A stretch of DNA of 64,000 bases from Mustelus asterias (Eukaryota), in assembly GCF_964213995.1 (NCBI RefSeq), contig NC_135825.1, positions 11,904,001 through 11,968,000 on the forward strand, given 5' to 3'. Of the stretch, positions 2,917 to 50,208 are shown piece by piece. How positions within the stretch are numbered: position 1 is the stretch's first letter; each line of letters begins with the position of its first letter. The notes below the pieces were generated by a model, which was not told where the DNA came from, made no database searches, and was given only the letters and a program-made list of their open reading frames with translations. The position numbers and the translations under genes were made by a program.

Positions 2917-3228
2917 CGTTAGATATTTGTAGGTTTACGTTATACAATGGATCGAGACCGGATGCTTCAATTCCACAGCTGTACCATCCTGCATCTCCTG
3001 AGCGAAGATCCTTCATGGTGACAACAAATACTCTTCGTGACTTGTTATCTGTGACTGAAATTCTTCCATTTTGCCAATTTGTCTTTGCTACAACATCACA
3101 TTGGCGATTCCAGCCGCGACACCAATATTTCACGTGTGACCGGTACCACACACCATAGTGACAATCGATTGTGATCGATCTTCCCACAATTCCTCTCACT
3201 TCCTCTTTTGCCCACAATGCACCTGAAA
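2917..3228 (-). CDS. Gene A exon 2: CD300/pIgR-like V-type Ig domain
   Basis: Acceptor ctcctcag|TTTCAG, donor G|GTGCGT; 312 nt, phase 1-1; ITIDC..KYWC-x6-C..DAGWYSCG with the extra C-C' cysteine pair typical of CD300/pIgR/TREM V domains. Confidence 0.92.
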
Positions 3229-7100: not shown

Positions 7101-8115
7101 AGGCTGCTGTGCTTCCACTGAAAGTGGAGGGAGTGGTCCATTGTACTGCAGGGTTACACGCCTCAGGTGGACCATAAAGTCTAGTCCCAGGAGCATCGGA
7201 GCGCAAAGGTGCGGTAACGCAAGGAGCCTGAAGTTCTCGTAAACTGTGCCCCGCACCGTTAGGTTGACCACGCAGCTCCCTAGCACGGTAACAGACCGGG
7301 ACCTCGACGCCATCGAAATTGTCTGTCTGACAGTCCGTACTCGGAGACCGCACCGTTTCACGGTGTCAGGGTGAATGAAGCTCTCCGTGCTCCCGCTGTC
7401 AAACAAACAATGAATTTGGCGTCCATTTACCTCTATGCCCATCATGGACTTGTCGAGTCTGTGAGGCTTGGCCTGGTCCAGGATGATTGACGCCACCATT
7501 GGGTCTTGGGTGCCACTGCAGGCAGCTGAGATGGTTGATGATGATGACCCCTGCTGGTCGTCCGCAGTCGGTGCCGACCAAAATGGCTGCGCCCATGGAT
7601 CGCACGTGGTCGGTGGCGCTAAAAGTGGCGGCCCCTGCAGGTCGCACATGTCTTGCATCTCCGTCGTCAGGAATGGCGGCGCTCTGGAATCGCACATGGT
7701 GGAAGACCTCGAAGACGCTGGAGACAAGGAGGCAGGCTCAGGAGAATCACACGCCGCACTGCTATGTTTGGAGAGTGATTTGGTCCTGCAGACTTTGGCA
7801 TAATGCCCTTTCTTTCCACACGCGGAGCACAATAGCGTTCTAGCTGGACATCGCTGCCGAGGGTGTTTCGCCAATCCACAGAAGTAACACCGTGGGCCTC
7901 CTGGAGCTGCCGCCGTCGTCAGGTCCGAGGTTGGAAACACAATCGTGCAGTTTTTCGGAGCCTCTGGGTAGAGTTGAGTCGGTGGCTGTACTTGCCACGA
8001 TGTTCCCACGTGGTCGGTGGGGTACGTTTCTAGACTTCTGGAGACTGTCTCCATAGCGTCGGCCAATTCTACTGTCTTAGCGAGGTCTAGATTACCTTGC
8101 TCTAGCAGCCGTGGT
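4184..8115 (-). mobile_element. Ty3/Gypsy LTR retrotransposon, 5'-truncated (gag Zn-knuckles, PR, RT, RNase H, IN, PPT, 3' LTR 4184-4490)
   Basis: CCHC knuckles, LFDSGS protease, RT, RNase H (SDASD), IN (HPE..CQVC, DFKG, HSDRG, E); PPT at ~4491-4505; one nonsense codon at 6591-6593; lies in gene A intron 1. Confidence 0.95.
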
Positions 8116-8330
8116 CAACACAGAAACAGTTTGCTAATCCAAAGATGTGCAGGTTAGGTTGATTGGCCATGCTAAAAATTGTCCCTTAGAGTCCTGAGAT
8201 GCGTAGGTTAGAGGGATTAGTGGGTAAATGTGCAGGGATATGGGGATAGGGCCTGGGTGGGATTGTGGTCGGTGCAGACTCGATGGGCCGAATGGCCTCC
8301 TTCTGCACTGTAGGGTTTCTATGATTTCTA

Positions 8331-8790
8331 ATGCCCATCAAACGTTTACTAAAGTTGTTCAAAGAACTGAGGAGATTAAAAGGGACATTAAACTTATCAA
8401 AGTCATCAACTAGTGGGATGATTAATGAAGCAGGGGTACAAATATGCACCTCCATTCATGGATTTGTCTCATGTTACCTGTCCAGTGAGACGTGACCTGA
8501 TACTTTCTGTGTTGACCAAATAAGGATCGTTGTTTGGATGGGTGCAAGATAGACCAGAGCCGCTGATTACTGCCTTACACCATATATGGTGAAGCTACGT
8601 GATTTACACGCAACTTGGTATTAACATTTGGGAGTTATTTATGAGTAACACCATTGGCTCTCACTGAACATTGTGATTAGTTCCCAGTGGTATCATTGGT
8701 TGAGTGTCAGAGAATTTTCTGGAAGGATGTGCAAAGTTTGAGATAAAAAGAGGAACTTTGAGTCATTTCCTCAGCAGAAACTCAAAAATG
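8331..8790 (+). mobile_element. ERV remnant (env 3' end plus LTR piece), paralogous to ~47110-47810
   Basis: TFTKVVQRTEEIKRD matches TFSKVVQRTKEIKRD; LTR segment matches the LTRs at 42.4 and 47.6 kb. Confidence 0.75.
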
Positions 8791-8802
8791 AGTGAAGTAG
8801 AG

Positions 8803-9128
8803 GGGTGGCCCAGTGGCACCGTAGTTAGCACTCCTGCCTCACAGCGTCAGAGCCCTGGGTTCAATTCTGGTCTCGGGTCACTGCCTGTGTGGAGTCCGCA
8901 AGTTCTCCCCGTGTCTGCATGGGTTTCCTCCGGGTGCTCCGGTTTCTTCCCACAGTCCAAAGATGTGTGGGTTAGGTTGATTGGCCATGCAAAATTGACC
9001 CTGGTATTGGGGTGATAAGCAGGGTAAATATGTTGGGTTACAGGAATGGGGCCTGGGTGGGATTGTGGCTGGTGCAGGCTTGATGGGCTGAATGGCCTCC
9101 TCTACACTGTAGGGATTCTATGATTCTA
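8803..9128 (+). mobile_element. HE1/V-SINE family copy (a 3' partial copy at ~8130-8330)
   Basis: tRNA-like head, V-domain ggtttcctccgggtgctccggtttc, CR1-like tail ending ttctatgattcta. Confidence 0.85.
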
Positions 9129-10109
9129 GAGGTTCAGAGAAGATGGGACTGGGAGATTGACATTGCTTTCTAGAAAATAGATCGATTGTAAATGGTGGAG
9201 AGTTGATAATGTTGATCAAAAACTCCATTGCAGTGTAGTATTAGATAATGTTAAAATGGGCAGGAGTGAAAAGTGAAACCTAGTTTAATAAAGTTAATGA
9301 ATTGAAAGAAAAAGAGTGGGAACATGAATATGAACCAATTGTCTACTATAGAGAAACATTGTCTCTGACAGAATCTCATGAAATCATTATCATCAACTGT
9401 ATGTGAAACAACAGAAACAGTTGCAAACGAGAGCCATGTTCTGTTTGTAGGATTATTATCACTGCAGTTTTCAGATTGTATTGCACAACAGATAACATTT
9501 CAGTTACCAATTAAAAACAGCTTCTATTTTTAAAATGATGCTTCCGAGATTTTAAAAAATTAAATTATCCTTAATTTCCCATCCACAATTAATAATGCAG
9601 TTTACTTTATTTGGTGAATGTATGCATGTTGTGCTAATACACAAACGAGGAGATACAATGCATCATAAATATTATTCATTTATATTTGCTAAGTATTTTG
9701 TGCCATTCGACTCAAGAGACTTCCCAAATCTAGAGATACATGAGGCAGACAAAGCAAATGTGTGTGTCTGTTTCCAATAGCTTGTCCTTCCTGAACCTGG
9801 TCACAAGCCTGAAGTCAGAGACTATAGCATGAGGGACATCACTCCACATCAAGACATTGCTGTCTGAGTATCTCTCCCTCTTACCGCCTGCCTTCAGCGC
9901 GTTGGTGCAATTTGCAACCTTGTTAGAATCCACCTTCCATTCCCATCAAGAGCAGGAGCGGGTCTAGAACCTGGAACTTCTGGCTTATGTACAGAGACTC
10001 TACTCACTGCAACACAAAACCGCCTTCTGCGTCGTTACACATCTCCAAATATTTAAACGTCTCTGCCGTATAACCTGTGGACTAGAGTTAAACTAACACT
10101 GTTACTCAC

Positions 10110-10146
10110 CGGGCAGAGAGCAAATGAGGAGAATCAAAATCCACAT
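10110..10146 (-). CDS. Gene A exon 1: signal peptide MWILILLICSLP(V)
   Basis: ATG plus 37-nt hydrophobic exon ending G|GTGAGT (phase 1); joins the V exon to give MWILILLICSLPVSGALW. Confidence 0.88.
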
Positions 10147-14474: not shown

Positions 14475-17349
14475 TCAATTGATGGTTAATTGATGGTCAC
14501 AGAGACCACTCCATCTGCGCACTGAGAGTCTGAGGGAGAGAGAGGCCAAATTCACTCCTGAACCTGTCAGACCCCATTACACATTCAATATCCCAATAAA
14601 GTATCGGTCCCTCCCTGAATCCGAGTACAATTGGTAACAGATGCTAAGGTTCCAGGTGGATTCAGTTGAAAAGTATTGTTGCCAACTCAGCAACTGGGAA
14701 TCTCTATTGGATTCTGATATGTTGAGTAGAATTACCAGTTAATTGACAGCCTCCATTTAAATCCAGCAATGACCATTTCAAAACCAGATCCTGCCAGTCC
14801 AGGGGCAGTTTGATCTTAAAATGGTCTGGCTTGGTTTTTCCCCTCTGGGTAGGGTTGCATAAAGAAGCAATAATTTGCATTCATATAGCAATTTTAACCG
14901 AGTAAAACTGGCAGAAACATTTTGGATGAGCTTAATTTGATGCAGGGTGGAAGGTGCAAGGCACAGGATGGTATTGGAACAGTCGAGTGTGGAGGTACCT
15001 ACAGTGCAGATGAGGACTCTGTTGGACAGGGAGGTAGAACAAGTCTGTTTTTTTCCTTATTCAAACCAGTGTGTCTCCTATTCTGCTGTTATAAATGTTA
15101 CATTGTCCCATCCCTGGCAAATGTGGAACATATCATTGGAGCGATTGGTTTCCTATGAATGAAAAATTCATGTTGCCTGTTCCTGACAGAATTAGTTAGT
15201 CTTTAAATTGACACAGATTAAGAGGAGAATATGAACTAAGAAGTGTAGACATTTAATCAGCAAACAGATCAGTTATTGTCCAGATGTAGATATACAACTT
15301 GAAAGTCCCAGCCATTGTTTAGGTTTTTGATTCCTCCACTAATTTACTGGCCAAAATAATTTAATAACATAAAACACGTTATTATGTCGACTTGTTAAAA
15401 AAAATGTTCAAAGTCGGATGAATCATGAATTTTTGACCAGGATGCAAAATGGATCTCAGTTCACAGAGAGAAGGCTCTGGGTGAAAGGAAACTATGATTG
15501 AGTAACTGGGAGGAGGACTCAATTCCAAATTGAGGATACAACTACTCAACGTCCTGTGACATGGGGCCGTGTATTTCCCATGACATAGTTGGCGATGAGT
15601 GATCCTGGTGAATGACACATTGTTTAAACATTGACCTGAATTTTACGCTCTGGAAGTGGGTGTGTGGTGGTCCAGATCATCCCAGAAATGGCACGCGGTT
15701 ACATTTGGAGGGCAACACCATCGCGTCATCTCTCAATGTTTTGTTCAGCTGGCACTTGCAGAATTTGGAAAAGTATTGTCACAATTAAAGGGGTGCGGAG
15801 CCAATGTTGAGGACACCCAGGGCAACTCCCTCCCGCTGTGCCGCTGCCGCCTCTGCTGGGTCTGCCCGCTGGTGAGACGGGCATACCCAGGGGTGGTGAC
15901 GGCGATCATAGGGACTTACATTTGTGAGTGCGATATGTCGGTGGTTCCCCATTGCTGGCAGTTGGGTTGGAGGCAGCTGGCTGACTCTGATGCCCTGTAG
16001 ACCTCAATTACCTTTGGAGCCTTTCTCTGGCCGGTGGAGTCTGTGCAAGCCCCAACTGGGTGGGAGATTCCACTGCCACAGCTGGGCACTGCTCAGTAAC
16101 AGTGTTCCAATTAGACATGACAGGCACTGGCAACAGGTTGGAGGAGATGCTGCCATCATCCACATCACCCTGAGAGGAGATTGCAGGTGTGAACTACAGA
16201 CAGCCCATCCACCAACATGAGATTGATTTGAACTCCCCAAACCACCATCAACTGATGGGCAGCTAACAGAGTTACTTGGTGCCTCATTCATTAGTTACAA
16301 TCTGCCAGTGCCATGAACTAAATCCAGAAGGGAAACTTGGCAAGCTACCACAACTATTTTCTTTTTGCCTTTTATCACAAGAAGATACATGCACGGAAGA
16401 TAGAAGCCAGAAATTCCAGTAGCTTCTAAATTCCAATAGCTTCACACGCTATTTTCCCAGCTCACCGTGCTGATCGGCAGGTGTGGCAAGGTATTTAAAT
16501 GGCGCTCTTGTGAGGCCAAAGATAACGGCTGCTCTGTTCACAATGTTCAATTGTAATTTTGGATCATCCAGGACTGGCTGTTGGACGAGAAGCTGGAACG
16601 ACTGTCCCACAGCACAGAGACAGTGGGGGAGACAAGAGAGGTGGAGCTCAGACAGGGGGCCAGGCTTCGTGCTTGAAACCGGGCTTGTAGACATTAGGAA
16701 ACAGGGAAACTTTATCAAGTGTAGATTGCATTTGCTAACATAAAGGTAAAATCATAACATAATGAAGTTAAGGTAAAATCAGCTTTCCGAAGTAAAGGGA
16801 AATACATTCTTATTTAACAGTTTGTCTCCAATTCTATTGCTATACACGCACATTGTCCCAACCTTATTCAATGTGGAACATATCATTGGAGCGACTGGTT
16901 TCGAGTAAATGAAAAGATCATGTTGCCTATTTCTTACAAGATGTGTTAGTCTTTAAATTGACACAGACTAAGATAAGAACATAAAATGAGAAGTCTAGAC
17001 ATTGGGCGAGTCTTTCTGGCTGCGCTCGCCCCAAAAGTGGAAAATCTCACCCAAGGCCAATGTATTTTTGCATGGTCCACCCCCACGACTCTTCCCATGG
17101 CAGGCGAGAAGGGAAAATTCAGCCCATTGAGTGAGCAAATAGAGCAATTACTGTCCAGATTTATATTTACAACTTTTAGGTCGCAGCCACTAAATATTTG
17201 GTCAAATTTGTTTAATGACAAAAAACTTCTTATTGTGTACATTGATTAAAAGAAATGTTCAAAGCTGGATAAATAATTAATATTTGACCAGGATGCAAAA
17301 TTCCACCAATGAGGATGTCAGCAGGGAATCTCCATTTTTCCATTTTGGT

Positions 17350-17379
17350 TCAACTTTGAGAATCGGGTTCATTGAGTGG
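17350..17379 (-). CDS. Gene B likely terminal coding exon: PLNEPDSQS*
   Basis: Strong acceptor ttttctttttcag, phase 0 matching the TM exon donor; gives a short tail without tyrosine motifs. Confidence 0.5.
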   Translation of the reverse strand, partial: PLNEPDSQS

Positions 17380-19787: not shown

Positions 19788-19887
19788 CTGAGATTTTCTC
19801 GTGTACCATGTGACCGAAATAACACAAATCACCAGGAGGGTAAAGAGCCCCCAGCGAATCACATTCCAGATGAAGGAACAGAGCAAA
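19788..19887 (-). CDS. Gene B transmembrane exon: (C)LLCSFIWNVIRWGLFTLLVICVISVTWYTRKSQ
   Basis: Acceptor tatttcttccag, donor CAG|GTGAGG; 100 nt, phase 2 to 0; hydrophobic helix followed by basic stop-transfer RK; phase 2 matches the donor at 22111. Confidence 0.85.
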
Positions 19888-22111: not shown

Positions 22112-22460
22112 CACTCGCTTTCCGTCCTTGCCACATCAACACTGTTGATCTGTGTCACACAACTGCAATTCTCCCGTGATCTGTGGATCACTGACACTGT
22201 AACCGTTTCACTGGACTTTTCTCCCTGGTGATTTGAGGCTGTGCAGTAATATTGATGATGTTGCTGTGTGAAGGATTGACAATGTAGATCCAGTTTATTG
22301 GTGTCAGAGATCTTTGAATCTTCAGGCGGGGTCTTTTCATACCATGTGTACTGAATGGGAAGTGATCCCTGGACAGACTCACAGGAGACGGACACTGAGC
22401 CCCCAGAACATGAGGCATTTGGTGGTGATAGAAATCTAAGTTCAGGAACAGACACGGGTT
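22112..22460 (-). CDS. Gene B Ig domain 6 (C2, membrane-proximal)
   Basis: Acceptor ttcctttctacag, donor TG|GTAAGA; 349 nt, phase 1 to 2. Confidence 0.85.
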
Positions 22461-23248
22461 CTGTAGAAAGGAACAATCATTGAGATACAGATTGAATAAC
22501 CAAAAAATTAAATACTTTCATGTCACCAATATTTCTACATCTCATCCAGAGTATGAGGAGGAAGGGAGAGTGTTAGCGAGAGAGAGAGAGAGAGCTGGCA
22601 GTGGGAACTTGGCCGATTGCGAGTAGTATCTATTGATTGCTGTCTGGGATTTAATTGTGAGTACTGTTTAACACTATAACTGCAAGTACTGATTGAAGTC
22701 TAAATCTCATCCAAAGGGCATGAGCTGGGAGATAGAAGCTATCCGCTGGCAGCAACTGGAATAGTTAATTGGGGAAACTGGCCTTTTTGTACCGAGTCCC
22801 TTTGTTTATGAACATATAAATTCAGACATTCTCAGTGCAACCAGAACTGGAGTCTGCCTTCAACCGAGTGTGGAGGTTTAATGAGCTGAAGGAATTTACT
22901 ACAGGGGAAGAAGTGAGCTGTTGGTGAGTATCTGGTGAGTATCCGGGAAGTGGTCAAGGTCGATTGTCCAAGCATCGGGAGCAAGGGTGGGGTCCTTGCC
23001 AACTTGTTAACCAGGAGAGCAGGTTCCAAGGTGCAATAAATCTGACGCCATCTCTCTGGATCATTACTCTGGGCCTCTGAATTACAATTCCTCCAACATG
23101 ATCATTGTTCTAACTGCCCTCTCGCTGCCAGACTCTGCACTGCTGCGGAACCTCAGGATATCGGAGCTGTCAATGTCTCCTCCCAGATAAAGCACTGATC
23201 AGACATTTCAGTCGAGAGTAATAAAGATAATCACTGAGAACTATGTAC

Positions 23249-23557
23249 CGTCAGATATTTGTAGCTTGACAGGAAATATTGAAAGGAGGCCGGGCTTATC
23301 AATACCACAGCTGTACCATCCTGCATCTCCTGAGCGAAGATCCTCCATAGTAACAACAAATAATCCTGGTGTCTTGTTATCTGTGATCGACATTCTCCCT
23401 CGCCGTCCATCTGGATCGTCTGATTTTACCAAACCAGAGCACTGACGACTCCAAGATTTCACATGTGACTGGGACAATTTGTCATAGTGACAATCTATAG
23501 TGATCGATCTTCCCAAAACTCCTGTTACTTTATTTTTTGCCCACAATACACTTGGAG
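23249..23557 (-). CDS. Gene B Ig domain 5 (V, lacks the first C-C' cysteine)
   Basis: Acceptor gtcttttcag, donor G|GTACAT; 309 nt, phase 1-1; open frame. Confidence 0.88.
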
Positions 23558-24643
23558 CTGAAAAGACAACAGGTCAAAAACTGAAGTGAAAATAATTGCT
23601 TAATACAAACAGATATATTTCAATAGGATTTACCACTGTGTTCAGAGAAATCTCTCCAGTACATCTTCCAATGCAATTGGATACTTCCTTGTCTGAGATG
23701 TTAGAAACATTAATATAATGGCTGGAATTTTCCAGAAAGAGGCAAGTCGTCAGGTTAGGACTGAAAATTGATGAGTTTCTCTCCAGAAAGACAGCCAGCT
23801 TTTCCCACCAGACCTCCTGACTTTGTCAAAAAAATCAGGGGGAGTGGTTTGTGCTGTCACTTTGTCAGGACGGGGCCTGATTGAGCTGGCAAGGCCGTCT
23901 CCATAGAGATTGGGCACCATTTTTAAAGTTGATATTAAAGTTCCGTTGAAGAACCCTCCCCCCGCACCCCAATGCCCACAGACACCAGGAACCTCAGTGG
24001 ACAAGGAGAAAACCCCTCACCTAGAGGGTAAATCTCCCCTCAACGTCCCACCACTCAAAGATCAGTGTTCTTCAACTACACCATGCAAACATTAGGGTAA
24101 CCCTACACCAGCCTCTCTCCGCCAGCATCATGGCATTCCCACTCCCACCCTCTCAGCAACGACGACCAACCACCCCACCATTCACAGTCTCCACCCCAAT
24201 GCATACACGGCCTCCCCACCCCCTCACAGCCCACAGGCATCAGGCCCCACCCCATGGACATCAGGACCCCCAGTAGACAAGGGGAACAGTATTCCAAAAC
24301 ATATCTGAGGAATTCTCCCCAGTCCTGGGGAAAGCTTATCTCTCAAACAGCAATTGTCAGACAGCAGATTGTCTGCTCATGATCACATTGCTCCTTGAGG
24401 GAGCTTATTGCTCACAAATTGGTGCTGAGCTTCCTACATCACAACAATGGCTCTGAATCAGTTCCAGCATTGACCAGAACGGACTTTAAAACTGTCCTGA
24501 AGTTGTGAAAAGTGCAAAATAAATGCAATTCTATTTTTATTCCAATTGCTTAAAACGAAGGAATGAACTAAACCCGTGAGCAATTCGGACTGACATTAAT
24601 TTAAAAATTAGTTGTAGTTTTTGAAGCTTAAAGTGATATTTAC

Positions 24644-24967
24644 CAATGCTGCTGATTTGTGTTAAATAACTGCAGTCATTCTCTGAAATGTGGATCACTG
24701 ACACCGTAACCATTTCACTGGATTTTTCTCCCTGGTGATTTGAGGCTGTGCAGTAATATTGATGATGTTGCTGTGTGAAGGATTGACAATGTAGATCCAG
24801 TTTATTGGTGTCAGAGATCTTTGAATCTTCAGACGGGGCCTTTTCATACCATGTGTACTGAATGGGAAGTGATCCCTGGACAGACTCACAGGAGACGGAC
24901 ACTGAGCCCCCAGAACATGAGGCATTTGGTGGTGATAGAAATCTAAGTTCAGGAACAGACACGGGTT
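24644..24967 (-). CDS. Gene B Ig domain 4 (C2)
   Basis: Acceptor ttcctttctacag, donor G|GTAAAT; 324 nt, phase 1-1. Confidence 0.88.
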
Positions 24968-25755
24968 CTGTAGAAAGGAACAATCATTTAGATACAGATT
25001 GAATAACCAAAAAATTAAATATTTTCATGTTACCAATATATCATCCAGAGTATGAGGAGGAAGGGAGAGTGTTAGAGAGAGAGAGAGAGAGCTGGCAGTG
25101 GGAACTTGGCCGATTGCGGGTAGTATCTATTGATTGCTGTCTGGGATTTAATTGTGAGTACTGTTTAACACTTTAACTGCAAGTACTGATTGAAGTCTAA
25201 ATCTCATCCAAAGGGCATGAGCTGGGAGATAGAAGCTTTCCGCTGGCAGCAACTGGAATAGTTAATTGGACAAACTGGCTTGAACTGGTCTTTTTGTACC
25301 GAGTCCCTTTGTTTTTGAACATATAAATTCAGACATTCTCAGTGCAACCAGCACTGGAGTCTGCCTTCAACCGAGTGTGGAGGTTTAATGAGCTGAAGGA
25401 ATTTACTGCAGGGGAAGAAGTGAGCTGTTGGTGAGTATCTGGTGAGTATCCGGGAAGTGGTCAAGGTCTATTTTCCAGCCATCGGGAGCATGGGTGGGGT
25501 CCTTGCCAACTTGTTAACCAGGAGAATGGGGTCCAAGGTGCAATAAATCTGACCCCATCTCTCTGGATCATTACTCTGGGCCTCTGAATTACAATTCCTC
25601 CAACATAATCATTGTGCTAACTGCCCTCTCGCTGCAAGACTCTGCACTGCTGCGGAGCCTCGGGATATCGGAGCTGTCAATGTCTCCTCCCTGATAAAGC
25701 ACCGATCAGACATTTCAGTCGAGAGGAATAAAAATAATCACTGAGAACAATGTAC

Positions 25756-26064
25756 CGTCAGATATTTGTAGCTTTACAGGAAATATTGAAAGGGAGCCGT
25801 GCTGATCAATACCACAGCTGTACCATCCTGCATCTCCTGTGCGAAGATCCTCCATAGTAACAACAAATAATCCTTGTGTCTTGTTATCTGTGATCGAAAT
25901 TCTCCCTCGCCGTCCATCTGGATCGTCTGATTTTACCAAAACAGAGCACTGACGACTCCAATATTTCACATGTGACTGGGACAATTTGTCATAGTGACAA
26001 TCTATAGTGATCGATCTTCCCAAAACTCCTGTTACTTTATTTTGTGCCCACAATGCACTTGGAG
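25756..26064 (-). CDS. Gene B Ig domain 3 (V, lacks the first C-C' cysteine)
   Basis: Acceptor gtcttttcag, donor G|GTACAT; 309 nt, phase 1-1. Confidence 0.88.
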
Positions 26065-26535
26065 CTGAAAAGACAACAGGTCAAAAACTGAACTGAAAAT
26101 AATTGCTTAATACAAACAGATATATTTCAATAGGAATTTTCACTGTGTTCGGAGAAATCTCCCCAATACATCTTCTAATGCAATTGAATACCTCCTTGTT
26201 TGAGATGTTGGGAACATTAATATAATGAGTGGACTTTTCCAGAAAAATTTCAAATTGTCAGGTTGGGACTGAAAACCGGTGACTTTCCAGAAAGACAGCC
26301 AGGTTTTCCCACCAGATCCCCTGACATTTTCCCCAAAAAATCAGGGGGCGTGGTTTGTGCTGTCGCTTTGGCAGGACGGGGCCTGATTGAGCTGGCAAGG
26401 CCGTCTCCATAGAGATTGGGCACCATTTTTAAAGTTGATATTAAAGTTCCGTTGAAGAACCCTCCCCCTGCACCCCAATGCCCACAGACATCAGGAACCT
26501 CAGTGGACAAGGAGAAAACCCCTCACCTAGAGGGT

Positions 26536-26775
26536 TGATGCATTATCAATACCCAGAGACGGAATCTGGAATAATAGGCTTTTATTAACAATAAAAGGGA
26601 ACTAACTCTACAGGAAACTCTAACCGAGGGACCGGACCAGAATGAGGCGAAGGGGAGGAGCAGCCACCTTTATACCCCAGTGAACAGGGGAGGAGCCTCA
26701 GGCAGCACCGGTAGGGGTGTGTCCAGTCATCAGAACATAACAGTGGTTATCAGAACATAACAGTGGTTTACCACA
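26536..26775 (-). mobile_element. Gypsy solo LTR, 240 bp
   Basis: Plus-strand termini tgatg...accaca as in the LTRs at 4184 and 30652; 5-bp TSD agggt; empty site in the duplicate at ~24025. Confidence 0.9.
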
Positions 26776-27393
26776 AGGGTCAATCTCCCCTCAACGTCCC
26801 ACCACTCAAAGATCAGTGTTCTTCACCTCCACCATGCAAGCATTAGGGTAACCCTACACCAGCCTCTCTCTGCCAGCATCATGGCATTCCCACTCCCACC
26901 CTCTCAGCAACGACGATCAACCCCCCCACCATTCACAGTCTCCACCCCAATGCATACACGACCTCCCCACCCCCTCACAGCCCACAGGCATCAGGCCCCA
27001 CCCCGTGGACATCGGGACCCACAGTTGACAAGGGAACAGTATTCCAAAAAATATCTGAGGAATTCTCCCCAGTCCTGGGGAAAGCTTATCTCTCAAACAG
27101 CAATTGTCAGACAGCAGATTGTCTGCTCAGGGTCACATTGCTCTTTGAGGGAGCTTATTGCTCAAAGATTGGTGCTGAGCTTCCTACATCACAACAATGG
27201 CTCTGAATCAGTTCCAGCATTGACCAGAACTGACTGTAAAACTGTCCTTAAGTTGTGAAAAGTGCAAAATAAATGCAATTCTATTTTTATTAAAATTGCT
27301 TAGAACGACACAATGAACTAAACCCGTGAGCAATTCAGACAGACATTAATTAAAAAATTAGTTGTAGTTTTTGAAGCTTAAAGTGATATTTAC

Positions 27394-27717
27394 CAATGTT
27401 GCTGATTTGTGTTAAGTAACTGCAGTCATTCTCTGAAATGTGGATCACTGACACTGTAACCATTTCACTGTATTTTTCTCCCTGGTGATTTGAGGCTGTG
27501 CAGTAATATTGATGATGTTGCTGTGTGAAGGATTGACAATGTAGATCCAGTTTATTGGTGTCAGAGATCTTTGAAACTTCAGATGGGGTCTTTTCATACC
27601 ATGTGCACTGAAATGGAAGTGATCCCTGGACAGACTCACAGGAGACGGACACTGAGCCCCCAGAACATGAGGCATTTGGTGGTGATAGAAATCTAAGTTC
27701 AGGAACAGACACAGGTT
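27394..27717 (-). CDS. Gene B Ig domain 2 (C2)
   Basis: Acceptor ttcttccccacag, donor G|GTAAAT; 324 nt, phase 1-1. Confidence 0.88.
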
Positions 27718-29065
27718 CTGTGGGGAAGAAACAAACATTCAGAAACTTGAGTGAACATCTAAGAATCAAACACTCTGTGATTTTCACCCGTTCAGCATCT
27801 CAGCCAGGGGCGGCCATGTTGGAATCTCACCAGCACATCCACGTCTCCATGGGGTCGAATGCTTAACCAGGGTTTGTATGTGGGAAGTGTGTTTGTGTTG
27901 TCCAGAAAGTTAGAAACACCAGGAAAGTTAAAGTTAAAGTTAAAAGTTAAAGCTTATTTATTAGTCACAAGTAAGGCTTATATTAACACTGCAATGAAGT
28001 TATTGTGAAATTCCCCGAGTCACCACAGTCCAGTGCCTGTTCGGGTCAATGCACCTAATCAGCGCGTCTTCACAAAAGTAAAATTTGTGCTGAATTTAAC
28101 AGCAAAATCTGATCAGAACTCTTCCAGAATTGAGAGTCTGGCTGGAGTTTGAGCAGAAAAGTCTGTCGTGTAAGATTTGAAATTGGTGGGGGTGTGAGCT
28201 CGGGGGACAGTCGCGAGGAGGGAATCAGGGAGGCTTTATTGCTCGTTAGCCAATCATGGGGAGGGACAGATTGTACAACGTATTTCCCCGGGGGCTGGGG
28301 TGAAGCACTCCTGTGCCTCCAGGTCCACAATCCGTCCTGGAAAAGCTGCTGGATCCAATCGATCCCACCGCCCTTCAACCTGATGCAGGATGGAGGAGGG
28401 GAGTTAAAATTCCCATTTGGCCAAAAGGAGTAGCCAAAAGTGACCGTTTTCACCAACATTTTAAATGAGGGCTGGTGAGTCTTCATTGCTGCCAGGGCCA
28501 CGAACTGTACTCTGAATCAAACAGGCCAAAGTTCGCCTGGTGACCGAAGAGTGTATTTTTGAAATGTTGCTGGCTGTGAGCTTGCCTCACACACACTCAC
28601 TCACACACCCAGACACACTGTAAAATTAACACTTGATCCAGAACATGGAGCAACGATTTGGCCATTCAGTCCCTCGAGACTGTTCCACACTTCAATTAAA
28701 TCACAAGTGACCTATATCATATACCAAAAGAGAAAATGCTGGAAAATCTCAGCAGGTCTGGCCGCATCTGCAAGGAGAGAAAAGAGCTGACGTTTCGAGT
28801 CCCGATGACCCTTTGTCAAAGCCTGTATCTTGTCTGTATCTTGACCTGTCTCTTATCCCTGTTTACCCACTTTGGCGACTGAAGCAAATCTGTCAATCTC
28901 AGTTTTAACATTTTCAATATATCTCAACAATACTTTTGGGGAAGGAGTTCCAAATTTTCACCACATTTGCGCAAAGACGGTATTTGTCTGTCTGATGGGA
29001 TCTTCATCATTCCATAATTGGACTGTTCAGTGCCTTCCATTGTGCATCAGCGGACACTTGTCATG

Positions 29066-30538
29066 CAGGGGCGTAGCCAGGTTCTAAAGTTAGGGGGAGC
29101 GAGCACATAAAAAAGGCGCCACGACGCATACCAAATAATTTTAAATTCATTATACATTTTTATTTTGTATTTAAAATCAAAGCATAATAAAAACACGAGT
29201 GTTATTTAATTATTTTACATTTTAAACGTAAAATGAAAACAAAATGAAGCAATATGAAAAAGATATGAAGCAACTACAGCAGCCTCTTTCGTCTCGGCTT
29301 CATTCGAGCAAAGTTATCTATTACTTTATTATAATCTACCTCAGTAGCCAACTGTCTTTCAATGGAGACCAAAGCTATCCCAGACAATCTATCCTCGCCC
29401 ATTGTAGAACGAAGGTAGGACTTTAAGTGTTGGAGCCGGCTAAAGGATCGTTCCACAACTGCGCTAGTTATTGGTAAGGTCAGAAAAATGTGCTACAATG
29501 TGGACAGGTTAGGATAAATGGAACACATGTCATTGGCGATCATGAATTTTAGTACATTGTTGATGGTCAGTTTCTCGACACGTGAATCTGCCTCACTGCC
29601 AGTGCTCATCATCTCTTTGAACATGTCTTTGAATGAAAGAAACTCTTGTACGATTTCAGTTTGACTGTCGATGACGTCTGAGTATGCGTCTGCTAAAAAT
29701 TCTAATTTGTTCACATTATCTGCGTGGTCAAAAAGCTTTGGATCTAAACCACTAAATTTGGAAGCCACATTTTTAAAATGCTCAAATCTTTTACTTGTGC
29801 TATTTATAACAGAATCTCAGGACACGAAGTAGGATTCAACTATGAAGCTCTTTCGGGCATCAAATATTCCTTCATCCTCTGCAATTTCTTCATGGAATCT
29901 TTTTCTTTTACGTTCTCTGTGCTGCTTGTCTTAACATCACATTTTCGAGCCAACTCGGTTGCTTCATTCTCAATCTGTTTGAATTGAGATTCATACTCAT
30001 TTTGCATGTTTTTCATATCTTTTTCAAAAAGCTGAATCAAATGAGAAGCCATTACCAGATCTAGACTACTTTTCTGTAAATATATGGATAAATTGAAAGC
30101 CTTGTCTAGCACTTTACTCCAGACTATAAGAAAAACTAAGAATTCGTATGTTGGACTCTGTAGCGGTTTAAATTCTTCAAGTGATAATCACCAAACCTAT
30201 TTACTCACCCAATCTCGGCTGGTGATGTCCGTCGGCGAGGGATGCTTGGTCTCGACTGCCCATTCGTCGCGGTGGCTGCATATTTATGTCCTTCGCAGCC
30301 TCTGCAATTATCCTCGTGATTGGATGCCCTCTTGGGAGATTGCACGCCTTCCGCGCTGCCTGAAGTCCCCACATCCGTATCGCATCCTACGATTGCAGTA
30401 CACGGATCGAGGACTTCAGATCTCAGGAAGAGATCTGAGGGGCCCGTGAGGAACACCCCATTGAAAAGGCGCCACTTTTGAAGAATGTGCTCAGGGGGAG
30501 CGATCACTCCCCCTGCTCCCCCTCTAGCTACGCCACTG
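29066..30538 (-). mobile_element. Internally deleted hAT DNA transposon (Tip100/ZMYM1-like transposase C-terminus)
   Basis: TIRs caggggcgtagccag / cagtggcgtagctag (13/15); perfect 8-bp TSD ttgtcatg; hAT dimerization motif ERSFSRL..LKSYLRSTMGEDRLSGIAL. Confidence 0.93.
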
Positions 30539-30559
30539 TTGTCATGTGACCTGAACTTG

Positions 30560-30650
30560 CGTATGTGTGTATGTGCGTATGTGTATGTATGCGTGCATAT
30601 GTATGTGTGTGTGTGCATGTGTATGGTGCGTGCGTGCATGTGTGTGTGTG
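30560..30650. repeat. Degenerate (GT)n microsatellite; a (CA)n tract lies at ~34250-34357
   Basis: Direct inspection. Confidence 0.85.
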
Positions 30651-30651
30651 C

Positions 30652-33600
30652 TGATGCACGTCAATCGAACTCAAGACACAAGGCTTCGGTAACTGAAGGC
30701 TTTTATTGCCTAACAATGGAACTACTAGAACGTAAGTACACCACCCCAGACTGACGAGGTCCCGCCCGAGCAGGGGGTCTTATACCTCTCCCAGGAGGCG
30801 GAGCCCGACTGGGATGTGCCACAACAGTAACAACCACAGGTGTATTAATCCCACCCTAGCCCAACAACAACATTAGAACAACCCCACAGTGGGAACCAAC
30901 GATGGTTCACCACATTCACCCCTCCTTTGAGAACAAAGGCCGGCGGGGTGCGAAAACAGACTAAAAAAAAGTCAACAGATTATAAGTCCAGACGGTCTGG
31001 AGGACCGCACCGTCGTTGTGACCTCCTCAATACCGGCGGTGACACCGGAGTAGGTGCTTGCGGTGGCGTTCTCTCCAAAACAGCGTCCGGCTGTCCTCTC
31101 GAGGACTCACAGGCTGGTTGACCCTGATGAAGCGGTAGTGCAGGGGATCCCGGTACATTCTGCGATGGCGCCGATCTCCGGGTCTCAGGCAAGCTGTACA
31201 GTGGAGTATAACTGTTATGCACTGGTCCCGGTGCTGACCGCGCCACGTCCGGGGGAGAAATAAGGGATAAGGGATTCGTCACTGGGGGTATAGGAGCGAC
31301 AGGAGTTGCTACGTCCCCTGCGGGCGCCAGGTCTCGGATCGAGACTGTCCTCTCGCCCGTCAGGATATGCCACATAGGCATACTGAGGGTTGGCGTGGAG
31401 GAGGTGGACCTGTTCGACCAAGGGGTCGGACTTGCGGGCCCTTACATATCGCCGCAGAAGGACGGGTCCTGGGTACGTCAACCAGGCTGGTAAAGATATC
31501 CCCGAGGACGACTTCCGAGGGAATGAGAACATCCTCTCGTGGGGAGTAGCATTGGTTGCCGTACACAGGAGGGAGCGAATGGAGTGAAGCGCATTTGGGA
31601 GGACCTCCTGCCAATGGGAGACTGGAAGGCCTTTGGACTTCAGCGCCAATAGGACAGCCTTCCAGACTGTAGCATTCTCTCTCTCCACCTGTCCGTTGCC
31701 CCGAGGGTTGTAACTCGTGGTCCTACTAGAGGCAATCCCGTATGAGAGCAGGAATTGCCTCAAGTCATTACTCATGAACGACGAGCCCCTGTCGCTATGT
31801 ATATAGCAGGGGTACCCGAACAGGGTAAAAAGATCACGGAATGCCTTGATCATCGTGGCAGTCGACGTGTCCGCGCAGGGGACAACAAACGGGAACCGGG
31901 AGTACTCGTCTATGATGTTAAGAAAGTACACGTTCCGATCTGTTGAGGGAAGGGGGCCCTTAAAATCCACACTCAGCCTCTCGAAGGGGCGAGTGGCCTT
32001 GACCAAATGTGCCCGGTCAGGTCGGTAAAAGTGCGGTTTGCATTCCGCGCAAATCCGACAGCTCCTTGTCACTGACCTGACGTCCTCCACCGAGTAAGGC
32101 AGGTTGCGGGCTTTGATAAAGTGGTAGAGCCGAGTGACCCCAGGATGGCACAGGTCATTATGGAGGGCGTTCAAGCGATCCTCCTGCATAGTAGCGCATG
32201 TTCCGCGCGAGAGGGCATCCGAGGGCTCATTGAGTTTCCCTGGACGATACATGATATCGTAATTATAGGTGGAGAGCTCAATTCTCCACCGCAAGATCTT
32301 GTCATTCTTGATCTTGCCCCTCTGCGTGTTGTTGAACATGAACGCCACGGACCGCTGGTCCGTGATCAGGGTGAACCGCTTCCCCGCCAGGTAATGGCGC
32401 CAGTGTCTGACGGCCTCCACAATGGCCTGGGCCTCCTTTTCCACCGCTGAATACCGAATTTCGGGACCTTGGAGGGTGCGGGAAAAAAAACGCGACGGGC
32501 CTGCCTGCCTGGTTTAGTGTGGCGGCCAGGGCGAAATCAGATGCATCGCTTTCCACCTGAAAAGGGATGGATTCGTCTACCGCGTGCATCGTGGCTTTTG
32601 CAATGTCGTGTTTCAATGCCTTGAAGGCCAATTGGGCCTCTGGCGTGAGTGGAAAAGTCGTGGACTTAATAAGCGGACGGGCTTTGTCCGCGTAGTTGGG
32701 GACCCACTGCGCATAATAGGAGAAGAAGCCTAGGCATCTCCTCAGTGCTTTTGCGCGAGTGGGCAAGGGAAGTTCAGCAAGGGGGCGCATACGGTCGGGA
32801 TCAGGGCCAATGACCCTGTTTTCCACTACGTATCCCAGGATGGCTAACCGGCGCGTACGGAATACACACTTCTCCCTGTTGTAGGTCAAATTCAGGCGAG
32901 ATGCAGTGCGTAAAAAGTTCTGGAGATTTGTGTCATGGTCCTGCTGATCACGGCCGCAGGTACGGGAAGGTAGCCCGCAGCCCGTTCTGGTCCACCATTC
33001 GGTCCATAGCACGCTGGAAGACCGAGACCCCATTGGTGACACCAAATGGAACCCTAAGAAACTGATACAGACGACCATCCGCCTCAAAAGCCGTGTAGTG
33101 TTGGTCCTCTGGGCGGATGGGGAGTTGGTGGTAGGCGGACTTAAGGTCTATGGTGGAGAACACCCGGTACTGCGCAATCTGATTGACCATATCAGATATG
33201 CGCGGGAGAGGATACGCATCGAGCTGCGTATATCGATTAATGGTCTGACTGTAATCAATGACCATCCGGGGTTTGTTCCCGCTCTTAACCACCACAACCT
33301 GTGCTCTCCACGGACTAACACTGGGCTGTATGATCCCTTCTTTGAGGAGCCGCTGAACTTCAGATCTGATGAAGATCCGATCTTCAGCGCTGTAACGCCT
33401 ACTTTTAGTAGCGATGGGCTTGCAGCCTGGTACCAGATTCTTGAATAAAGAGGGTGTGGTGATCTTTAATGTAGAAAGATTGCATGCGGGGCGCTTTGGA
33501 CAATTTGGAGACTGCAGCTGGTCCCCTACTGTCAGCGAAGGGAGTGGCCCACCGTACTGTAGGATCACACTCTTCATGTGGACCATAAAGTTTAGTCCGA

Positions 33601-34240
33601 GGAGAATTGGTGCGCAAAGATGCGGCAACACAAGGAGCCTGAATCGCTCGTAAATTGTGCCCTGCACTTTCAGAGTTACCACACAACGTCCTTGAACAGG
33701 GACAGACCAGGACCGTGATGCCATAGAGATTGTCTGTTTGGCAGGTTGAACCTGGAGTCCACACCTCTTTACAGTGTCAGGGTGAATAAAGCTCTCAGTG
33801 CTCCCGCTGTCAAACAGACAATAAATTGCACGACCATTTACCTTTATGTCCATCATTGAACAGTCAAGCCTGTGGTGCTTAGCCTGGTTCAGGGTGATCG
33901 ACGCCACCGTTGGCCCTTGAACGTCACTGCAGGCAGCTGAGGTCGATGCTGAGGACCCCTGCTGGTCGCTCCTGGTCGTCGTCGACCAAAATGGCCGCCC
34001 CCATGAATCGCACATGGTTGAGGGCGCCAAGCGTAGCGACTCCTTGTGGTCATCCTCCTCCGACTCCGTCGACCACAATGGCGTTGTCCTGGACTCGCAC
34101 GTGGACGAACCCCGTGGGTACTTCGACGTCGATGGTGATGATCCACGTTCTGAAGGGTCACAGGCTGCACTGCCGTTCTTGGGCTTTGATCTGCACACCT
34201 TTGCGTAGTGCCCCTTTTTACCGCATTGATTACAGACCAC
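30652..34240 (-). mobile_element. Second Ty3/Gypsy element of the same clade, 5'-truncated and frameshifted; 3' LTR 30652-30914
   Basis: PR-RT-RH-IN highly similar to the 4.5-8 kb copy; PPT next to the LTR; deletion of the RT active-site motif near 32960. Confidence 0.95.
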
Positions 34241-34361
34241 CGCACGGACGGACACACATAAATACCACACACAAAGACACACACACACATATGACCACCG
34301 ACACACAGACACACACACAGACACACACATACACCCCACACACAGCCATACACACATAAAT

Positions 34362-34693
34362 GGGGCAGCACAGTGGAATGGGGCGACACAGTGGTTAGCA
34401 CTGCTGCCTCACAGTGCCCAGAGACCTGGATTCAATTCCAACTTGGGTCACTGTCTGTGTGAAGTTTGCACGTTCTCCCCGTGTCTGCGCGGGGTTTCCT
34501 CCAGGTGCTCCGGTTTCCTCCCACAGTCCAAAGATGTATGGGTTAGGTTGGTTAGCCATGCTAAATTGCCCCTTCGTGTTAGGGGATTAATAGGGTAAAA
34601 AAGGAGGGTTATGGGGATAAGGTCTGGGTGGGATTGTGGTGGGTGCAGACTCAATGGGCCGAATGGCCTCCTTCTGCACTGTAGGATTCTATG
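34362..34693 (+). mobile_element. HE1/V-SINE copy (others: ~21920-22065 -, ~37305-37650 -, ~39405-39708 -, ~41203-41552 -, ~45905-46192 -, ~57270-57402 -)
   Basis: tRNA head and V-domain in each; two different 3' tail types are present. Confidence 0.85.
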
Positions 34694-36212
34694 GAAGTAG
34701 AAAATGATTTTGATCCTGAGCTGCAGGCCTGTTTGGGAAGATAATGAGCTGGATTTTCACCAAATCACATTGAATTGGGAGCCCTCTAAAAATGCCGGTT
34801 GCTCCTAATTCCCGGATTCTCGATCCCATTCCTGGTCTGTGCGATTTAAAGAATTATTTTCAAGGGTCCTAACAATAGCCCACTGCTGCTTCCATTGTTG
34901 AGCAAGGCACCTTCGACTCCGCTGCTATGTTCATGCAATCGGGGTCAGACCTTTAGGGAGCTTTGGTTTATTGACTGCCAGGAGGAGTCACTAACCCCAG
35001 TCTGCATGACGGGGCCTTTCAAAAGTTAAGTTAAAAATGTTATCCCAATGTCCCCTTTGCCAAATCACACCCCCTAACCATGCACTAGGTTTCCTCATGA
35101 ACCTTGTGCCCTTCTATCCAGCTCCATATGTCCTCATGCCTCCTCATTGCCAAGCTCTGCCCTTCCACCCACCCCCAGTGTGGGTTGTGGGGGGTGAAGG
35201 ATTGAGGGGCCTTTGTGTTTTGATTTTAGCTGGGACAAAATCTCGCGACACTGAGCTGGGCATTTACAACAGCCCCCCTCCCCCTTCCCCTGGCAGCCCC
35301 TGTTGCTGCGTCTGCATTTCTTCCTGGGTTGGCAGGCCAAACCCCAGCATGGACCTATCCCTCCACCAGGCCAACATCTCAACATTTCAACAATGAATGA
35401 AGAGGAGAAGAGAGAAAATGCTGGAAAATCTCAGCAGGCCTGGCAGCATCCAGGGTCTCAAAGGGTCGTCTGAACTCAAAACATCAGCTCTTTTCTCTCC
35501 TCACAGATGCTGCCAGACCTGCTGAGATTTTCCAGCATTTCCTCTTTTGGTTTCAGATTCCAGTATCCGCAGTAATTTGCTTTTATATTTTAATTAATGA
35601 AGCGGCTTCTTTTAATCATCAAAACAACTCTTCAGTTCCTGTTTAGTTCTCTTGTAAAGCTGAAATCTGTTCGGCTGACCTAAGCATCTTGGTGAATATG
35701 TGAGTCGCCCATCATATCAGGAAGCCTGTGGACAGATTTTTACACTAACTCCCCTGGCTGTTTTTTATGTAAGGGGGAGTCAAATTGGAGGGACGGGATT
35801 CCCTCTGAATTCCCACCCTTCCCGATCTCGCAGCAATTCTACACTTGGGTAGGAAAGATCTCACATGGAAAGCTGGTTCTTGCCCGACTCCAAGCATGTC
35901 AACTGAGTTGCGAAGAACTGTCTGAGCTGCGGAATAATGCACACCTTATGCAAGCTTTCCTCAAAGTGGGGCTGATTCCCTGTCCCACCACCCACCTCAC
36001 ACATGTGCTTGTGCACTGCCATCAGACCGTGCTGAATCCCTACCCCTCTTGCTCCACCCATAGGGCAGCTCCTGTCCTAGCACCACACAGTCAGCAGCCG
36101 GGACAGAGCAACTCGGCACCACCGCTTACCCCCCCTCCCCGCCCACCCCCGCCTGAATATGTGGCGCCTCTTCCTTCAAGGTGAATGGGCGGCACTCGTG
36201 AACACTGCTTAA

Positions 36213-37110
36213 TATAGAAACATAGAAAAGCTACAGCACAATACAGGCCCTTCAGCCCACACAGTTGTGCCGAACATGTCCCTACCTTAGCGATTACTCG
36301 GCTTACCTATAACCCTCTATCTTACTAAGTTGCATGTACTTATCTAAAAGTGTCTTAAAAGACCCTGTCGAATCCGCCTCCACCACCGTTGCTGGCAGCC
36401 CATTTCACGCACCCACCACCCTCTGAGTGAAAAACTTACCCCTGACATCTCCTCTGTACCTACTCCCCAGCACCTTAAACCTGTGTCCTCTTGTGGCAAC
36501 CATTTCAGCCCTCGGATAAAGCCTCTGACTGTCCACTCGATCAATGCCTCTCAACATCTTATACACCTCTATCAGGTCACCCCTCATCCTTCGTCTCTCC
36601 AAGGAGAGAAGGCCGAGCTCACTCAACCTATCCTCATAAGGCATGCTCCCCAACCCAGGCAACATCCTTGTAAATCTCCTCTGCACCCTTTCTATGGCTT
36701 CCACATCCTTCCTGTAACGAGGCAACCAGAACTGAGCACAGTACTCCAAGTGGGGTCTGACCGGGATCCTATATAGCTGCAACATTATTGCATGACTCCT
36801 AAACTCAATTCCTCGATTGATGAAGGCCAGTACACCATACGCCTTCTTAACCACAGCCTCAACCTGCACAGCTGCTTTGAGCGTCCTATGAACTCAGACC
36901 CCAAGATCCTTCCGATCTTCCACTCTGCCAAGAGTCTTACCATTAATATTATATTCCGCCATCCTATTTGACCTGCCAAAATGAACCACCTCACACTTAT
37001 CTGGGTTAAACTCCATCTGCCACTTCTCCGCCCAGTCTTGCATCCTATCAATGTCTCGCTGCAACTTCTGACATCCCTCCACACTATCCACAACACCTCC
37101 AACCTTTGTG
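36213..37110 (-). mobile_element. 5'-truncated CR1 LINE (RT C-terminus and tail)
   Basis: LQRDID..WAEKWQMEFNPDKC, VRPHLEYC, RRRMRGDLIE; (tttctatg)n-type tail. Confidence 0.92.
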
Positions 37111-38451
37111 TTAATGTTAATCTGCAGTGGAGCAGCTGGAGTAGACCGGGGTGTGGTCTCCGCCATTCTCCGGATGGTGTGGCTGACCCTACGCTATCCC
37201 AATAATTCAGGTCTATGGATCCTGTTAAGTTCTGTGTATTTATTCTATTTTATTATATTCAAGGAATTTACACCATCAGTAGTGACGAGCTATTCAGTGT
37301 TTTAGAATCCCTATAGTGCAGAAAGAGGCCATTCGGCCCATCGAGTCTGCGTGAACTCTCCGAAAGAGCTTCCCACCCAGGCCCACCACCCTGCTCTATC
37401 TCTGTAACCCCACACTTTAACCATGACTAATCCCTCTAACCTACACATCTTGGGGCACTAAGAGGCAATTTAGCATGGCCGACCCACCTAACCGGCACAT
37501 CTTTGGGCTGTGGGAGGAAACCAGAGCACACGGAGGAAACCCATGCAGACACGAGGAGAAAGTGCAAACTCCACACAGTTGTCCAAGGCCGGAATTGAAC
37601 CAGGGTGCCTGGTGCTGTGAGACAGCAGCACCTACCACTGCGCCGCCCACAAATTAAGCACCCAACATGGGGCTTTTTGTCTTTTGTCTTTTAGTTTTAA
37701 TACGAAAGCAAACACCTGACAGTTTGACAAGTTGGAAAGAGCAGGAATTGGGTTTTGTGTGAGTCAGATTTCCCGACTTCTGCCCTCTAGCTGCCAGAGT
37801 CTGCACTGCAGTGGACCCTTGGGATACCGGAGCTGTCAATGTTTCCTCTCAGAGGAAAGCATGGCCTGAACTTTTTGCTCGTAGTGTGTGTGTGCACTCA
37901 GCGAGTCTGGACGTGGGTACGAAACCTCAGCCCCGAAGCGCAGTTCCACACTGGCTGTCCAATGAATGGGGGAAGAGCCACTGTGGAGCTGTCTCAGGGA
38001 GCTGTTGACCCGTGAAAAATATCAATGTTAAAACGATACCGCGAGTGTCAGGGCAGCACGATCACACACACAGCTCAGGCCCCAGACACATTTCTTACTT
38101 TAATATGAACCCTGACCTTTCATTCCGCCCTGGATCGAGGTTGCAGCTAAAATGTAAAGGTCACCTGGCCAATTGGCCCACCCGCCAACTGTAAAGGCAG
38201 ACGGGCAACTTAAAGTCCTGGACAATTGGTGTTTAATGAATTTAAATTGACTTTTGCATGGCTGGCAGCCGCACTTCCGACTTGCGCATGTGCCTGGCGA
38301 CTGAAATATTGAGAGAAGGCATATTGCCGTCGGGGTGTGATTTTACCCACATTCGGGTAGGGCACACGCCTGATTTTTATACATAAAATTCTGGCCATTG
38401 AGCAGAGATTTCAGTCAAAAGTAATAAAGATAATCACTGAGAATAACGCAC

Positions 38452-38763
38452 CGTTAGATATTTGTAGGTTTACGTTATACATTGGATCGAGAACGGATGT
38501 TTCAATTCCACAGCTGTACCATCCTGCATCTCCTGAGCGAAGATCCTTCATAGTGACAACAAATACTCCACGTGACTTGTTATCTGTGATTGATATTCTT
38601 CCATTTTGCTGATTTGTTGTTGCTACAACATCACATTGGCGAGTCGAGCCGCGACACCAATATTTCACGTGTGACCAGTACCACACACCATAGTGACAAT
38701 TGATTGTGATCGCTCTCCCCACAATTCCTCTCGCTTCCTTTTTTGCCCACAATGCACCTGAAA
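38452..38763 (-). CDS. Gene B Ig domain 1 (CD300/pIgR-like V)
   Basis: Same splice sites as 2917-3228; 312 nt, phase 1-1; four-cysteine V domain. Confidence 0.92.
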
Positions 38764-49204: not shown

Positions 49205-49241
49205 CAGGCAGAGAGCAAATGAGGAGAATCAAAATCCACAT
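49205..49241 (-). CDS. Gene B leader exon, proximal copy (MWILILLICSLP)
   Basis: 37 nt, G|GTGAGT donor; nearly identical to 10110-10146. Confidence 0.82.
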
Positions 49242-49952
49242 CGTTGCGTTGGAGATCAGATCAGTGCTTGTCGTCAGTCACCCAGCTCCTGTGTCTCACG
49301 CTGAAATAAGTTTTGAATATAAGTTGTAGAAGGAATTTAAAAGGGGAAGAAGACAACAGGAAGTTATGTCATGAAAGCTCAGTAATCCAGATGATGAAAT
49401 CTGGCCCGTAAGATCTTGAACTTCTGTTAGTGTGAGATGGAGAGGGCTGGGAGGAGGCTCAAATGGAGCATAAGACCAGCATCGTGTAGGTGGGCTGAGT
49501 GGCATTTGCCTGCTGTAAATTCTCAGCAAATTCTGTATCATCCAGCTTTGGAAATGTCCAATTATTCATGTTGATATTTATTATCCTTACCAGGTTATCA
49601 TGCGGAGTCTTGTCTCTGCGATGACATAGAATGCCTATTGAGCCTGAAAAATGACAATATAACTTCTGGCTTGGTTACAGATTCCGGAATTTTCCAGCTG
49701 TTCACGTCCTGCCACCGCTGTCAGAGAGGATGGAGAATTTGGCGCTCAGACAAATCTCCATTCACTGCAGCAGGACAGAAGAATCCCGGCTGCAAGCGAG
49801 GTTGAAGAATCTGTCCCAGAGACTCTTCCCACTGTAACACAAAACCTCTTTCTGTGCCTTTATAATATTTAAACGTCTGTGCCGTATAAGCTATAGACTA
49901 GAGTTAAACTAAGACTGATTATCTGACTATCCAGCTCTGGCTATTACTCACC

Positions 49953-50171: not shown

Positions 50172-50208
50172 CGGGCAGAGAGCAAATGAGGAGAATCAAA
50201 ATCCACAT
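50172..50208 (-). CDS. Gene B leader exon, distal copy (MWILILLICSLP)
   Basis: 37 nt, intact ATG and G|GTGAGT donor. Confidence 0.7.

Follow-up and report, generated by a model that had tools for sequence, protein, structure and literature searches.

In PMC3031540, the MDIRs (modular domain immune-type receptors) of skate and zebrafish are described as receptors related to CD300, TREM, FCAR and pIgR. Their ectodomains combine V-type (V) and C2-type (C2, or C in strings) immunoglobulin (Ig) domains in variable number and order, VC in MDIR2, VCVC in MDIR5 and VVCVC in MDIR3. The founding paper, by Cannon and colleagues in 2006, is said to have predicted one to six domains, and the six-domain alternating form may already be shown there or in its supplements. 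Here, we analyzed a 64,000-nucleotide stretch of Mustelus asterias (contig NC_135825.1, positions 11,904,001 to 11,968,000; the window), which carries on its minus strand a gene whose nine exons join into a coding sequence of 2094 nt (697 aa), with the predicted order leader, V-C2-V-C2-V-C2, transmembrane segment (TM) and short tail. A preliminary description of this DNA had proposed six open Ig exons in this order and a product of this length, and the model bears it out. By sequence similarity, the locus is an MDIR-family immune-receptor gene, a further paralog of a known cartilaginous-fish family. Our preferred reading, to which we assign a probability of roughly 0.6, is that it is an open frame for a membrane receptor of three V-C2 modules, the middle one probably gained by unequal crossover between C2 exons, with predicted signaling through an adaptor bearing an immunoreceptor tyrosine-based activation motif (ITAM).

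A search with the C2c protein returned 137 matches, and the 120 of them that were listed are all cartilaginous-fish proteins by name, including MDIR3 and MDIR5. Compared with the domains of these two receptors, the V domains of the window are 48-61% and the C2 domains 57-74% identical. Domains were assigned as V or C2 from Pfam and from sequence matches to PDB entries. All three V exons score above the V-set cutoff. When compared by sequence with solved structures, V1 matched pIgR (E 2e-45, over several domains) and CD300lf (E 4e-17) best, with TREM also found. C2b and C2c exceed the Ig_3/Ig_2 cutoffs and C2a falls just below them; the best structural match of C2b by sequence was FCRL5 (E 1e-42 summed, best domain 2.5e-07). 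Hence both domain types of the MDIRs occur here, the V type on its identity to MDIR3 and MDIR5, its V-set assignment and its pIgR, CD300 and TREM matches, the C2 type on its identity to the MDIR C2 domains, together with a module number and order that vary among members and with a charged, short-tailed TM in a multigene cluster, the family alternative to the latter being a tail with an immunoreceptor tyrosine-based inhibitory motif (ITIM). When the full library was searched, close C2 relatives turned up in the MDIR-type group alone: of the 121 new rows, 115 lacked a V domain as well as a strong MDIR-type C2, and identity outside the group was about 21-37%. Domains group by lineage, the skate V domains forming a clade of their own (100/99).

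The preliminary description had set the gene against CD300 and pIgR, which implied a novel ectodomain; this overlooked the MDIR family, in which MDIR5 is already V-C2-V-C2. Among the 120 listed matches, to which the counts below refer, we found 24 architectures (VC in 32, VCVC in 30, VCVCVC in 16, plus longer forms). At least three compact consecutive V-C2 modules, and up to nine, occurred in 25 matches from 13 of 24 species; these are nearly all automatic gene predictions, some of which may be wrong, and five of the 25 look fused. The compact VCVCVC form was present in 13 matches from 10 species, five of the 13 having by pattern a TM with an arginine (Arg-TM) and a short tail. Judged by sequence, MDIR-type receptors of cartilaginous fishes are normally built from V and C2 domains in alternation, and a plan of three or more V-C2 modules is, by gene predictions, plainly common in these fishes. 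Also noted were a skate model with nine V-C2 modules (P0004) and a skate model named TRIM69-like (P0077), in which C2-V-C2 and an Arg-TM follow RING/B-box domains and which is likely a fused annotation.

Table 1. Positions in the window of the exons of the MDIR-family gene, of the duplication and of the neighboring gene
Feature	Position	Strand	Remarks
Leader exon	49205..49241	-	37 nt; 12 codons + 1 nt
V1 exon	38452..38763	-	312 nt; CD300/pIgR-type V-set, 4 Cys
C2a exon	27394..27717	-	324 nt; FCRL-like C2, 6 Cys, 'ISEND'-type 3' end
V2 exon	25756..26064	-	309 nt; V-set, 3 Cys
C2b exon	24644..24967	-	324 nt; mosaic junction exon
V3 exon	23249..23557	-	309 nt; V-set, 3 Cys
C2c exon	22112..22460	-	349 nt; modelled donor 25 nt past usual position
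TM exon	19788..19887	-	100 nt; Arg near outer end, W-x-V-I-R-W
Last coding exon	17350..17379	-	30 nt including stop; 9 codons, no tyrosine motif
Tandem duplication block	22142..27746		22142-24995 matches 24649-27746
Solo long terminal repeat (LTR)	26536..26775		240 bp, TG...CA, with a target duplication of 5 bp; absent from the other duplicate copy
Neighboring MDIR gene	333-10146	-	leader 10146-10110, V 3228-2917, C2 650-333; runs beyond window

All modelled exons are stop-free and bounded by AG acceptors and GT donors. The tandem block has a period of 2507 bp (2750 bp where the solo LTR lies) and copies about 95% identical, in agreement with the duplication of about 2.5 kb proposed earlier, and the homology switches inside C2b. 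This exon is a mosaic: its upstream intron is of C2c type, agreeing with C2c at 22 informative sites with a single exception, and its 3' end and downstream intron are of C2a type, the downstream flank agreeing with C2a at nearly all informative sites. Within the exon, 6 of 7 early sites follow C2c and 17 of 20 late sites follow C2a (Fisher p 0.002, for a split chosen after looking at the data). Unequal crossover between the two C2 exons in a V-C2-V-C2 gene would be expected to leave mosaic flanks of this kind, and by sequence the middle module likely arose in this way, as the earlier proposal that C2 exons act as crossover sites would have it. The cores of the four C2 exons of the window are 90-97% identical. 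Among these exons there are two types of upstream intron and three types of 3' end, paired differently in each of the four, while the V exons keep both flanks. In the mechanism that we propose, the two C2 exons of a V-C2-V-C2 ancestor, 92-97% identical, would have paired out of register, adding one C2-V unit to the gene, and the same process within and between neighboring genes would have produced the arrays of one to nine modules seen across the family.

The duplication is real and not very recent, because the introns of the two copies show 99 mismatches over 1859 aligned sites, and seven indels. At about 5% divergence the copies are not near-identical in their introns. That the block might be an assembly artefact is hardly credible: an independent long read across it was not seen, but the intron differences and a solo LTR with its target duplication in one copy argue against it, as had been anticipated. 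The coding parts have kept their frame: the intron rates predict about 4.3 frameshifts or stops over the 633 duplicated coding sites, which contain none (rough P 0.013). The nonsynonymous rate of the C2 exons is lower than that of the introns (p 0.011 and 0.044), and the nonsynonymous rate of V2/V3 equals the intron rate (p 0.76). V2 and V3, 96.1% identical in nucleotides, differ by 11 nonsynonymous changes and one synonymous change, an excess that does not demonstrate positive selection (p 0.31). In V2, a serine replaces the first cysteine (Cys) of the CD300-type second disulfide; V1 has four Cys and V2 and V3 three each, a state that recurs in 17 of 275 V domains among the listed matches, from four shark species.

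At the membrane end of the model, joining C2c to the TM exon needs a donor 25 nt beyond the usual one, at 22112. Its phase, phase 2, is exactly the one that the TM exon requires, and in a rough matrix it outscores five of the other Ig-exon donors. Hence C2c as modelled is phase 1-2 and phase 1-1 holds for five Ig exons only, so that the earlier idea of symmetric exons that can be skipped in frame stands for these five and fails for C2c. We propose that the TM is reached through this donor and that its 25 extra bases replace the stalk exon; no second copy of the extension, which may be remnant stalk, former intron or inserted sequence, was found within the window. The TM exon is 89% like that of paralog XP_078098258.1 and 56% identical to the MDIR5 TM over 27 aa.

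A charged TM with a short tail marks a stimulatory receptor coupled to an ITAM adaptor, following a rule given in PMC3031540. With an Arg close to the outer TM end and a tyrosine-free tail, the predicted protein fits this rule, and the ITIM-type exons at 60.8-63.1 kb fit a paired-receptor cluster. We propose that the V domains would bind ligand with the C2 domains as spacers, and that the TM Arg would recruit an FcR-gamma-type adaptor, the receptor being paired with the ITIM paralogs of the same cluster. By analogy with the V domains of CD300 and TREM, the ligands may be lipids or microbial surfaces.

Several observations weigh against the reading of a self-duplicated, membrane-bound receptor. 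The early C2b sites are mostly changes private to C2a, the C2 of the neighboring gene agreeing with C2b and C2c there, and the crossover can therefore be placed only somewhere in the C2 exon core. V2 and V3 are each nearer in protein to paralog P0085 (93-94%) than to each other (about 90%), and the tree does not resolve them as sisters. It is possible, if quite unlikely, that the extra module came by crossover or conversion with a neighboring paralog, making the gene a patchwork of subfamilies. V1 is 93.6% identical in nucleotides to the V of the neighboring gene and groups with it and with P0024/P0011 (on an unstarred branch), V2 and V3 group with internal domains of P0001-P0003 (13 rows, 100/99), and C2a combines an upstream intron 93.8% like that of the neighboring gene with a 3' end of another type. 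In six same-species paralog models, 10 of the 12 'ISEND' C2 ends have a V2-type domain after them, regardless of the V in front (the other two are followed by a C2 and by the end of the protein), and a V1-type domain before an 'ISEND' C2 was not seen in them. One of these paralogs, P0003, named 'titin-like', is V-C2-(V'-C2)x5, with five copies of the same C2-V unit. What speaks against a paralog as the source of the module is that the two units lie side by side, share about 95% identity and stay colinear through every intron; by either route the result would not differ, and the crossover would still have fallen in a C2 exon. Paralog exchange, again inside a C2 exon, is nevertheless likely on sequence grounds to be part of the history of the gene, given the separate groupings of V1 and of V2/V3. 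Among the C2 domains of the listed matches, 193 of 265 have their nearest neighbor under the same species label, a pattern that repeated homogenisation or a recent expansion would produce. Paralog P0002 consists of a four-domain unit present three times, (V-C2-V'-C2)x3, with identical repeats.

The junction of C2c with the TM raises further doubts. After 22137, where C2a, C2b and the C2 of the neighboring gene have the usual GT, C2c reads AT. A stalk exon between C2c and TM was found neither by tblastn nor by a stalk profile, the latter giving no positive-score match in four window stretches at a sensitivity that is not complete (3 of 5 training proteins scored 18-32 bits). A stalk Cys is present in 38 of the 39 Arg-TM relatives whose last Ig domain is a C2; the Cys-bearing stalk, typical of MDIR members but not known to define them, was not found here, and in the modelled junction a Cys falls at a comparable distance. 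These findings would fit an MDIR copy that has lost its stalk exon and usual donor and that either makes a secreted six-domain protein of 655 aa, by read-through to the TAA one codon past the 22112 donor, or is decaying. We regard this as unlikely, though it has to be taken seriously, since paralog P0001 also ends without a TM, running into sequence 93% like window 20827-20690, the RefSeq model does not use the TM, and the V2/V3 nonsynonymous rate does not fall below that of the introns. It is opposed by the open TM and tail exons with good splice sites, by the exact phase that the 25-nt extension yields and by the frames kept through about 5% divergence; moreover, the lone AATAAA of the C2c-TM intron, at 21740, is at the background frequency of 0.9 per kb and lends no support to an intronic poly(A) switch. 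Two Pro/Ser-rich, phase 1-2 candidate stalk exons near 21.3 kb were not accepted, their similarity to the family being nil.

The RefSeq protein XP_078098057.1 of Mustelus asterias matches the exons at 94-100% by tblastn, with 100% for V2 and V3, and because of these matches the window is most likely its locus. This model departs from ours in that it skips C2a, joining V1 to V2, exits C2c early, omits the TM and fuses to the neighboring gene through the 5' region of that gene. It is visibly chimeric, with an internal leader peptide. The skip could be taken to mean that the gene mainly yields a protein of five Ig domains arranged, like those of MDIR3, as V-V-C2-V-C2, an order found in 6 of the 120 listed matches, MDIR3 included; C2a is preceded by a 10.7-kb intron and carries one extra Cys. 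We consider this very unlikely, as C2a is open, has intact AG and GT ends with the same donor as C2b, and the RefSeq model is chimeric.

No transcript of the gene was seen. Among the sequencing runs listed there was no RNA run, and the best share of words was 0.38. The 4 of 24 runs that were compared consisted of short, repeat-swamped contigs with fixed differences from the window; none spanned the block and those shown included no exon-exon joints, and they give no evidence either way on expression, the 22112 donor or copy number. In addition, Cannon and colleagues reportedly did not class MDIR5 as activating despite the same TM Arg, which lowers our confidence in the adaptor-signaling step of the preferred reading.

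Per XP_078098057.1, the neighboring MDIR gene, wrongly fused there to the studied one, is V-C2-V-C2 with a stalk and Arg-TM. On the other side lies a minus-strand paralog of ITIM type, whose 3' exons (63094-63146 and 60773-60909) encode two tyrosine motifs; a TAG stands where the frame otherwise continues towards a third motif near 60625, and P0085 ends at the same residue. Between two leader exons, at 49591-49643 on the minus strand, we found an orphan cytoplasmic exon of ITIM type (88% like P0011) with AG and GT ends, which is a vestige of exchange between genes of the inhibitory and the activating kind. The second leader exon, at 50172-50208 (minus), codes the same 12 residues as that at 49205-49241, and either could start the gene; the sequence upstream of both resembles that of the neighboring gene (blocks of 80% and 98% identity). 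The 3' end region of the gene (16800-17310) has a diverged second copy 1.8 kb downstream, at 15050-15460 (about 80% over 368 sites). The solo LTR is about 77-79% like the LTRs of Gypsy-type elements in the window, which lie at 4461-7699 and 30885-34104, are 80% alike and belong to the same family; lying in different introns of two genes, they are independent insertions. The V1-C2a intron also holds, at about 29060-30550, a DNA-transposon-like insert whose hAT type was judged only by eye.

As a single gene, the locus adds little, being one more MDIR paralog. Its use is as a DNA-level example of how MDIR modularity arises, through putative crossover in a conserved C2 exon beside fast-changing V exons. 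Our literature search found MDIRs mentioned in PMC3031540 alone, and it cannot tell whether a publication already describes the (V-C2)x3 form or the mechanism of crossover. A bolder proposal, which we hold to be rather improbable, is that the C2 core serves as a recombination cassette for the whole cluster, V modules being swapped and multiplied inside single genes and across the divide between activating and inhibitory ones, with the result that length and V order would vary between sharks as a germline combinatorial system of up to nine modules, with a membrane/secreted switch at 22112. Should individuals differ in module number, the cluster would be the equivalent in sharks of KIR/LILR haplotype diversity, except that domains rather than genes would vary in number. 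For annotation, the analysis indicates that public models misname and fuse MDIR genes ('FCRL5', 'titin-like', 'pIgR-like').

In comparison with known systems, the gene departs from the better-known relatives of its domains. CD300 has a single V domain with a YWC motif and two disulfides, as stated in PMC3031540. Here there are six domains, only V1 has 4 Cys, and C2 domains alternate with V domains, which is seen in none of CD300/CMRF35, pIgR and TREM, CD300 having one V. pIgR has tandem V domains only, a long tail for transcytosis and binds polymeric Ig; in this gene C2 domains intervene and the last exon encodes 9 residues. FCRL receptors consist of C2-type domains only, FCRL5 lacking V domains of CD300 type, and this gene has three V-set domains. 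Relative to the skate MDIRs, it has three modules instead of two, a second disulfide short of one Cys in V2 and V3, and a phase-2 donor on its last C2, and a stalk exon was not found. The VCVCVC, Arg-TM and short tail recur in shark and ray RefSeq models named 'pIgR-like' or 'FCRL5-like' (for example P0016, P0017, P0018, P0023 and P0029), which carry a Cys-bearing stalk and are gene predictions rather than described genes. With the clearnose skate receptors MDIR5 (ABC86800.1), MDIR3 (ABC86797.1) and MDIR2, the last with an ITIM-like tail on its VC ectodomain, the gene shares the same two alternating domain types, the same leader type and a cluster with ITIM paralogs, and with MDIR5 also a W-x-V-x-R-W TM and a short tail.

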